From the IMG/VR virus record IMGVR_UViG_2778261121_000004: a DNA stretch of 8,610 bases; one strand, written 5' to 3'. The position numbers and the translations under genes were made by a program. The notes under the pieces are model-generated. The model was not told the origin of the DNA. It saw nothing but the letters and a program-made list of their open reading frames with translations, and made no database searches. Source of the stretch: a virus (lineage: Duplodnaviria; Heunggongvirae; Uroviricota; Caudoviricetes). Within the stretch, counting starts at the first letter, position 1, and every line of letters begins with the position of its first letter. Positions 7,328 through 7,629 of this stretch are shown piece by piece.

Positions 7328-7598
7328 AGGCTATCGGAGCCGCTTATTGTTTGCTGACACTCATTCGATAGTTGAATGCAAGTGGAAATCATAGTGTTAG
7401 TGAATGACATGCGGGGAGGGGGGGATTTTCGGGGGAAAAGCCGATCGCCCCGGACACCGCCACCTCTCTCACGCACAGAAAAAATAGCCCTTTGAGGGGG
7501 TATAAACATGTTTACAAGCCAGGGGTTAACAAATTTACATAACTTATTGTTATTAAATGATTGTTAGTCGAAAAATGTTTACAGGTAGCACCCATAAA

Positions 7599-7629
7599 GT
7601 TAACTGCATTGTTAACATCCTCTGTTAAC
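7599..7629. promoter_or_regulatory. Three GTTAAC motifs at 12-13 bp spacing upstream of the terminal gene; candidate regulator binding array
   Basis: GTTAAC at 7599-7604, 7611-7616 and 7624-7629, with a fourth at 7525-7530. ATGTTTACA is repeated at 7508-7516 and 7575-7583, and AAACATGTTT (7504-7513) is a perfect palindrome. Confidence 0.3.

Follow-up and report, generated by a model that had tools for sequence, protein, structure and literature searches.

Gene content of the island and its terminal gene

The window, i.e., the whole stretch of 8,610 nucleotides of viral DNA that was analyzed, is by its gene content an 8-kb PICI-like satellite, the island proper being ~8.3 kb long. As in PICI-type elements, whose size is ~8-15 kb, there is an integrase, an AlpA-type regulator and an own replicase with a putative origin adjacent to it, and lysis and tail genes are absent. 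The genes referred to below are the following:

1183-2406: tyrosine integrase
Also in the window (Pfam and PHROG scans): AlpA-family regulator and DUF4222 protein
5158-6573: RepA/AAA_25 helicase
Upstream of the terminal gene: two small proteins of 71 and 57 aa
7690-8610, plus strand: terminal gene, 306 aa, a homologue of the capsid half of the prohead-protease/major-capsid fusion of helper phages (Ccm-like)

A 99.9% identical copy of the window is present in E. coli GPEC1186, where it lies between yhdJ and fis. Only nine relatives of the terminal protein were found in the databases, and its homologues sit in syntenic islands of Salmonella and Enterobacter and on metagenomic contigs; a scan of genome contigs for relatives yielded one partial locus only. 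The replicase differs among these islands while the remainder is kept: it is RepA/AAA_25 in the window (5158-6573), D5_N with DUF5906 in island L003 (7067-8890) and DUF927 in island L006 (6705-8816), and the presence of three unrelated replicase modules in otherwise syntenic islands points to modular exchange. Directly 3' of the RepA helicase gene of the window, at 6573-6800, there are at least eight GTGCGCG-type iterons (AAAGTGCGCG, GTGCGCGGAATGGG) in both orientations, and this array is probably the replication origin of the island.

Pfam and PHROG scans revealed no terminase genes in the island, which must therefore use the terminase of a helper. The same scans revealed no Sid, Psu or Delta families, and C4 RNA was absent according to Rfam; a P4-like satellite was rejected on these grounds and also because the cos described below is of the HK97 type and not of the P2 type. 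The Rfam scan of the whole window, with E-values of up to 1, returned two sub-threshold chance matches only, none of them in 7328-7656.

The 57-aa protein (7154-7327), which is kept just upstream of cos in all relatives including the distant L010, bears the RefSeq label 'antitermination protein NusG'. Neither this protein nor the 71-aa one has a match in Pfam or NCBIfam, and no solved structure was matched by them, Rpp chains included. By eye, the 57-aa protein resembles a short heptad-like coiled coil (...LESEVEGLISLLGEH), and its annotation as an antitermination protein looks unreliable. A small minus-strand gene of the YlcI/YnfO family is located beside alpA in the island (L001, 8317-8496), and phage JLK-2012 has a gene of this family immediately in front of that for HNH (L015, 4393-4593). 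Past the end of the window, between the terminal gene and fis, two pseudogene fragments of a Rha-family regulator and a 70-aa ORF are found (L001, 13460-13926); they lie near attR and have probably remained there from the decay of an island or a phage.

It was proposed in the initial annotation that the terminal gene starts at ATG 7690 (or 7657) rather than at TTG 7561 and that the repeats in front of it are non-coding, and the comparison with related islands bears this out. The point at which protein conservation sets in is exactly MKHLT, i.e., ATG 7690, which holds even for relatives with 50% identity, and the AGG of the Shine-Dalgarno sequence AGGT (7680-7683, plus strand) is kept 7 nt upstream of this ATG in all islands and in the distant relative L009. 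A start at TTG 7561 is ruled out by L006 and L013, in which the reading frame is closed by a stop only 48 nt before the conserved MKHLT. A start at ATG 7657, the equivalent of which PGAP uses in the GPEC1186 copy, is possible and would lengthen the protein by 11 poorly conserved codons; the best choice is ATG 7690.

The terminal protein has a weak match to the PHROG 617 major head protein (E 5e-6), it matches the 656-aa protein of phage 1717 in BLASTP (E 5e-12), and with the capsid protein of JLK-2012 hhalign gives a probability of 98.3% over 310 aligned columns. The alignment covers residues ~340-634 of the 645-656-aa prohead-protease/major-capsid fusion of the helpers, a protein that matches both TIGR01554 and TIGR01543. 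The satellite, as in the case of Ccm, encodes a homologue of the helper major capsid protein, and the terminal protein is probably a Ccm-like candidate for redirecting capsid size. An AlphaFold2 model built from an 8-sequence alignment had a pLDDT of 32.5 and was unusable, so the fold of this protein rests on sequence-profile evidence; a PDB profile search with the alignment of terminal proteins returned nothing meaningful.

The intergenic region in front of the terminal gene

The terminal gene is separated by a gap of 329 bp from that of the 57-aa protein, and in this gap one block is kept even in the most distant relative, L009. The features of this gap are listed below; class-1 and class-2 stand for the Stx phages and for the phages related to Salmonella phage FSL SP-016, respectively.

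7365-7411, plus strand: left arm of the putative cos region, in which short repeats of the AATGA/AATGC type precede the G-run
7413-7424, plus strand: G-run GGGGAGGGGGGG opening the conserved cos core, invariant in all aligned islands and phages
7425-7468, plus strand: conserved cos core ending in the predicted cosN, ~80% identical to the HNH/terS block of Stx phages
7469-7485, plus strand: invariant box TCACGCACAGAAAAAAT, a G and then an A-tract (A6), just downstream of the predicted cut
7488-7500, plus strand: CCCTTTGAGGGGG, a small hairpin and relic of the terS ribosome-binding site, matching TCCCTTTTGGAGGGT right before the terS ATG of FSL SP-016-type phages
7504-7516: site A, palindrome AAACATGTTT with ATGTTTACA, corresponding in degenerate form to the 18-bp palindrome CAGTTAACATGTTAACTG of the phages
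7508-7567, plus strand: 19-codon relic ORF MFTSQGLTNLHNLLLLNDC (MFTSQGLT...), read directly; compare MLTAQK of class-2 phages
7525-7530: GTTAAC site, island-specific; GTTAAT in most relatives, with no counterpart at this position in Stx phages
7531-7569: AT-rich spacer by composition, a possible bend or IHF locus
7570-7585, plus strand: site B, GAAAAATGTTTACAGG, an extended motif at +105 to +107
7597-7604, plus strand: site C, AAGTTAAC, whose position at +128 to +130 is common to Stx phages (AATGTTAACC) and L009
7609-7618: site D, TTGTTAACAT, which reads in both orientations; in Stx phages the inverted GTTAACAT lies a few nt further, at +145/146
7622-7629, plus strand: site E, CTGTTAAC; GTTAAC is intact in 6/6 aligned close islands and absent from L009 and the phages

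A search of phage genomes with this block returned 86 records that match 7412-7515 at ~80% identity, all of them Stx-converting or related lambdoid phages, and in the annotated phage records the matching sequence always falls in the interval that separates the gene for the HNH endonuclease from that for the small terminase (terS). In HNH-dependent HK97-type phages, cos is located between the HNH and terS genes. The genome end of HK97 is experimentally defined, and similarity to it was found in the island block: from the G-run to CACCGCCACC, the blocks of both phage 1717 and the island can be aligned with the right end of HK97 (G9-ATCAAATCTTCAAAACCTTTGCCCCAAATGACCGCCGCCAAA). The shared pattern is a G-run, 42-44 nt and then GACCGCCGCC, a short alignment of moderate score that is backed by the matching spacing, since from the end of the G-run to the genome end there are 42 nt in HK97 (G9 run) and 43 nt here (7424 to the predicted cut at 7467/7468). 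Within it, GGACACCGCCACC is matched by ATGACCGCCGCC of HK97, which lies three nt short of the end of that record. The left arm (7365-7411) aligns locally with the HK97 right-end sequence AAATGCAATTACATCAAATGAGAATGAATCGCATC, and similar sequence is present upstream of the G-run in FSL SP-016-type phages.

HK97 cos is cut with a 10-nt 3' overhang and requires the HNH protein gp74 (PMC11331095, PMC9410871). By extrapolation from the HK97 genome end, the top strand of the island would be cut near 7467/7468 and, if the overhang length is taken from HK97, the predicted 10-nt 3' overhang would be approximately CGCCACCTCT (7458-7467). Independently of this alignment, two of the IMG/VR contigs with the invariant box TCACGCASAGAAAAAAT have their first nucleotide 1 and 2 nt before TCACGCA, which is indirect evidence of cleavage here. 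An exact pattern search for the box TCACGCACAGAAAAAAT found it in at least 120 viral contigs, with HNH upstream and terS downstream in 99 of 120. The HK97 small terminase binds DNA from +15 to +29 downstream of the cut and reads a G beside an A-tract (PMC11331095); the box of the island is placed comparably to this site, the small terminase being of a different family. We assign 7412-7516 to the cos core with high confidence, and ~7365-7630 is read as the span of the whole putative cos site. A literature search for the cos ends of BP-4795-, 1717- and 2851-type phages found none published, and the cos of SfI/SfV (TGCCCGCCCC, PMC3636060), which was also considered, is a different sequence from that of the island.

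This cos type is present in 635 of 5426 complete E. coli genomes (~12%), mostly STEC, with 1-8 copies in each. In the host chromosome NZ_CM142789.1 its sole copy is the island's own. There is no resident prophage with this cos type in that chromosome, so the identity of the helper is deduced from sequence alone.

The repeats themselves are as the initial annotation described them when read from the sequence: GTTAAC is found at 7525-7530, 7599-7604, 7611-7616 and 7624-7629, the last three copies being 12 and 13 bp apart, ATGTTTACA occurs at 7508-7516 and again 67 bp further on, at 7575-7583, and the palindrome formed by AAACATGTTT (7504-7513) is perfect. There are seven GTTAAC hexamers in the whole window against 2.0 expected, and four within 126 bp were found in 0/300 first-order Markov copies of the window; among Markov copies of the AT-rich 7500-7660, four or more were found in 0/10,000 and three or more in 2/10,000. 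Since neither set of simulations reaches the observed clustering, it is not due to chance. In the relatives, the conserved unit is a degenerate GTTWAY (GTTAAC, GTTTAC, GTTAAT, GTTTAT), often in the form (A)TGTTWAY and in both orientations; the GTTAAC hexamers of 7525 and 7611 are GTTAAT in most related islands. Once two GTTTAC copies are added there are six sites in 7508-7629, and three of these six, at 7525, 7611 and 7624, are specific to the islands. In every locus examined, GTTWAY is most densely clustered in the cos arm (3-6 per 160 bp vs ~0.2 expected). A GTTAAC/ATGTTTAC pair at 7123-7140 was considered as a second site and is not conserved, and a minus-strand ORF at 7324-7509 that starts in the palindrome was discarded after translation by hand because a 1-nt indel in the relatives breaks its frame.

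What is conserved between islands and phages is the motif and its position. All islands and phages examined have the inverted half-site pair of site A, its positions relative to the anchor being +31/32 and +38/39, and the motif of site B and its distance are common to all islands, to L009 and to class-1 Stx phages (GGAAAAAATGTTAACTGG). Taken together, the window, five related islands, L009 and the Stx phages all have GTTWAY at distances of +31/+39, +105-107 and +128-130 from the anchor. Counted from the predicted cut, the motif distances are +39, +106/107 and +129/130 in helper-type phages and island alike, and the spacers between the motifs are unalignable. The identity of 7500-7656 is otherwise low, 40-41% to the phages and 51% to L009, a 50%-identity relative. 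In the HNH/terS gap of the Stx phages, the order is an 18-bp perfect palindrome, CAGTTAACATGTTAACTG, a T-tract-rich spacer of ~68 bp, AAAAATGTTAACTGG, AAATGTTAACC and the inverted GTTAACAT. The retention of motif and spacing while the spacers have been randomized argues for function, and the arrangement, in which repeated elements common to helper-type phages and satellite lie between the cut and the terS start, is that of a cosB-like region. A scan with the IHF consensus gave only one-mismatch matches at 7540-7566; L009 has a perfect match, and in phage 1717 there is none.

Possible functions of the repeats

We consider it probable that the repeats at 7504-7629 are the terS-proximal, first-packaged arm of a cos site spanning ~7365-7630 that was acquired from HNH-requiring HK97-type lambdoid phages. 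The source phages would include the Stx-converting phages 1717, 2851, BP-4795 and JLK-2012 and the Salmonella FSL SP-016-like phages. The most likely function of the repeats would then be that of a cosB-like binding array for the helper small terminase, a protein with a Terminase_2 N-terminal DNA-binding domain that has weak similarity to the SF6 domain. An analogy is provided by small terminases of the SPP1 type, which are reported (Chai et al., 1995) to bind phased short repeats in bent DNA on both sides of the cut. Speaking against the cos-arm reading is the fact that the cut is predicted from HK97, a phage with a small terminase of another family that recognizes a single 15-bp site and not repeats. 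Other points against it are that half of the six sites are specific to the islands, that the motif cores are only modestly conserved among close islands, that the intergenic array is absent from class-2 phages and that the host chromosome has no resident helper.

The initial annotation suggested cooperative binding of an activator or repressor, possibly from the helper phage or the island, to the repeats, which would then be operator or activator sites for switching on the terminal gene. Such a function seems unlikely to us, even though the repeats are located 60-185 bp upstream of the gene start, palindromic half-sites are typical of dimeric helix-turn-helix proteins, a weak sigma-70-like match is present at 7534-7561 (TTTACA-16-AATGAT, 9/12) and a co-opted helper signal would give helper-dependent timing. 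The decisive result came from the search for the same motifs in helper phages that had been suggested along with this proposal: they were found at the cos/terS junction and not in late promoters. It is established for lambdoid phages that the cos/terS junction is transcribed late by read-through from pR', with antitermination by Q. The sites of class-2 phages are within terS itself, and the block that the repeats adjoin aligns with the HK97 end. The sole promoter-like hexamers lie inside the array and are not conserved in L003, L006, L008 and L013, and no conserved -35/-10 pair was found downstream of the repeats. A terminator scan of 7100-7800 found none, which makes read-through from the upstream plus-strand genes plausible, and neither the remainder of the islands nor the phage loci that were examined, which span no more than 12 kb of any phage, contain a second comparable GTTWAY cluster. 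It is possible that the repeats have a dual role, with secondary regulation added to packaging.

The class-2 phages bear on the cos-arm reading and also on another explanation, according to which the repeats are non-functional, duplicated and decayed terS 5' ends (ATGTTAAC...) left after the loss of an ancestral terS. In 40 unique viral sequences of these phages, the ATG of the palindrome is the terS start codon (ATGTTAACAGCGCAAAAG, MLTAQK), and the ribosome-binding site in front of it, GGAGGG, corresponds to CCCTTTGAGGGGG of the island; a further inverted pair, TGTTTAT-N-GTAAACA, is found ~245 nt into terS. Sites within the coding region fit a packaging signal, not a promoter. The class-2 phages are without the intergenic array, and the repeats are thus not universally required for this cos type. 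Compared with the class-2 start, the ORF at 7508-7567 of the island, opened by ATGTTTACA at 7508, is a decayed 5' end of terS; this first copy is clearly a relic of the terS start, which counts for the relic explanation. So does L010, in which (1860-5341) the cos-like block still precedes an intact terS of the Terminase_2 type, and a 50-aa gene, the capsid homologue and the large terminase gene (terL) come next; this order, which may be the ancestral or an intermediate architecture, suggests that the family of the window arose by losing its terminase genes. Moreover, conservation of the motif cores within closely related islands is only modestly above that of the spacers (0.89 vs 0.75-0.81). 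Nevertheless, sites B and C keep both motif and distance across islands, L009 and Stx phages, where the spacers have near-random identity, and the array is present in Stx phages with an intact terS, i.e., it is not merely debris of gene loss. The repeats could in part be duplicated relics of the terS start, and a relic without any function has, in our opinion, a low probability.

Short phased repeats beside an AT-rich stretch also resemble a replication origin, with iterons flanking an unwinding region, and it speaks for such an assignment that PICI origins are located 3' of the replication gene (PMC6092414). However, a far better iteron array, the one of at least eight GTGCGCG-type copies at 6573-6800, lies directly 3' of the RepA gene. 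The GTTWAY array neither adjoins the replicase gene nor co-varies with it: the replicase type changes among islands and the array stays. It is moreover found in the packaging module of the phages, not in their replication module, and we regard an origin at 7504-7629 as highly improbable.

Proposed packaging model and relation to known systems

If the repeats are the right arm of a helper-type cos, the following sequence of events can be proposed. When a helper grows in the cell, the island would be excised by Int and AlpA and replicated from the GTGCGCG iterons at 6573-6800 by its own RepA helicase. The helper small terminase would bind the invariant box TCACGCACAGAAAAAAT and the (A)TGTTWAY repeats, the predicted layout being the palindromic site A, an AT-rich spacer of ~67 bp and sites B to E at intervals of 22, 12 and 13 bp. 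The large terminase and HNH endonuclease of the helper would then cut concatemers near 7467/7468, and packaging would presumably proceed rightwards, with the capsid-homologue gene entering first. The product of this gene would probably redirect capsid assembly as Ccm of SaPIbov5 does.

The closest relatives of the island cos are those of HK97 and of the Stx phages. The likeness to HK97 extends from the HNH gene through the G-run, ~42-44 nt, the C-rich cut site and the G-plus-A-tract box to the terS start; however, the HK97 small terminase is outside Pfam Terminase_2 and has one 15-bp site (PMC11331095), whereas that of the helper here is Terminase_2, the right arm of the island has 4-6 GTTWAY repeats, and the sequence downstream of the cut is unalignable. 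With the Stx phages (1717, 2851, BP-4795, JLK-2012, YYZ-2008; Pankowvirus, Marienburgvirus) the island shares a core of ~80% identity and the palindrome and two downstream GTTWAY sites at equal distances. It differs from them in that in the phage the array is followed by terS, whereas in the island terS is gone and the capsid homologue comes next; no alignment of the spacers is possible, the sites at 7525, 7611 and 7624 are extra ones of the island, and the left arm of the latter is similar to HK97 and FSL SP-016 and not to the 3' end of the Stx-phage HNH gene. The cosB of lambda (R3-I1-R2-R1, from cosN to Nu1) is alike in outline, as it combines repeated small-terminase elements with a bend locus (PMC6739421), but its repeat sequence is unrelated, gpNu1 is a winged-helix protein and the lambda overhang is 5' and not 3'; in the island, no convincing IHF site was found, and the small terminase of the helper belongs to Terminase_2 and not to the gpNu1 family.

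Satellites that carry the cos of their helper are known, namely SaPIbov5 and P4 (PMC5052747; bioRxiv 10.1101/2022.09.08.507074) and also EcCICFT073 (PMC6092414, PMC6739421). The cos SaPIs of S. aureus of the SaPIbov5 type, like the island, have a helper HNH-type cos and a capsid homologue and are without their own terminase (PMC5052747, PMC8569155), but their hosts are Gram-positive, the sequences are unrelated and they are regulated by Stl and not, as here, by AlpA. In addition, Ccm of SaPIbov5 keeps a short N-terminal delta-like domain, while in the island homology starts within the capsid half of the protease-capsid fusion. With the E. coli cos PICIs of the EcCICFT073 type, the island has in common the Int-AlpA-replicase architecture and, according to the model above, cos packaging by a lambdoid helper (PMC6092414, PMC6739421). 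Those elements mimic the cosN of lambda or phi80, have their own cosB that differs from that of the helper and retarget the helper small terminase with Rpp, whereas the island described here keeps helper-type motifs. The proteobacterial satellites known on HNH-type phages are cf-PICIs, which have their own capsid and terminase genes (bioRxiv 10.1101/2022.09.08.507074), and in limited literature searches no enterobacterial island was encountered that combines a helper cos of the HK97 type with a lone capsid homologue.

We therefore offer, as a tentative proposal with rather less than an even chance of being right, that the window represents an undescribed family of enterobacterial satellites (E. 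coli, Salmonella, Enterobacter) that parasitize HNH-dependent HK97-type lambdoid phages, Stx-converting ones included, by means of only two morphogenetic assets. One would be a copy of the helper cos with more GTTWAY sites (6 vs 4), possibly stronger in competing for terminase, and the other a truncated capsid homologue that redirects capsid size. If this is true, such islands could lower the yield of Stx phages and be transduced by them, and satellites that interfere with Stx phages would bear on the spread of toxin phages. The strategy would be a Gram-negative counterpart of that of SaPIbov5, which combines the helper cos with a capsid-protein homologue. With the cos-arm reading, a presumed promoter region is reassigned to a packaging signal, Stx-type lambdoid phages become the likely helpers of a previously unannotated 8-kb island, and a candidate recognition motif and cut site are provided for a Terminase_2 small terminase that works with an HK97-type large terminase and an HNH endonuclease, a combination for which no cosB is described in the literature searched. 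In several Stx and PPompW prophages, IS629 and ISEc20 are found in or beside the cos/terminase region (L014, 7474-8784; H84-H90), and these insertions may inactivate packaging in the prophages concerned.
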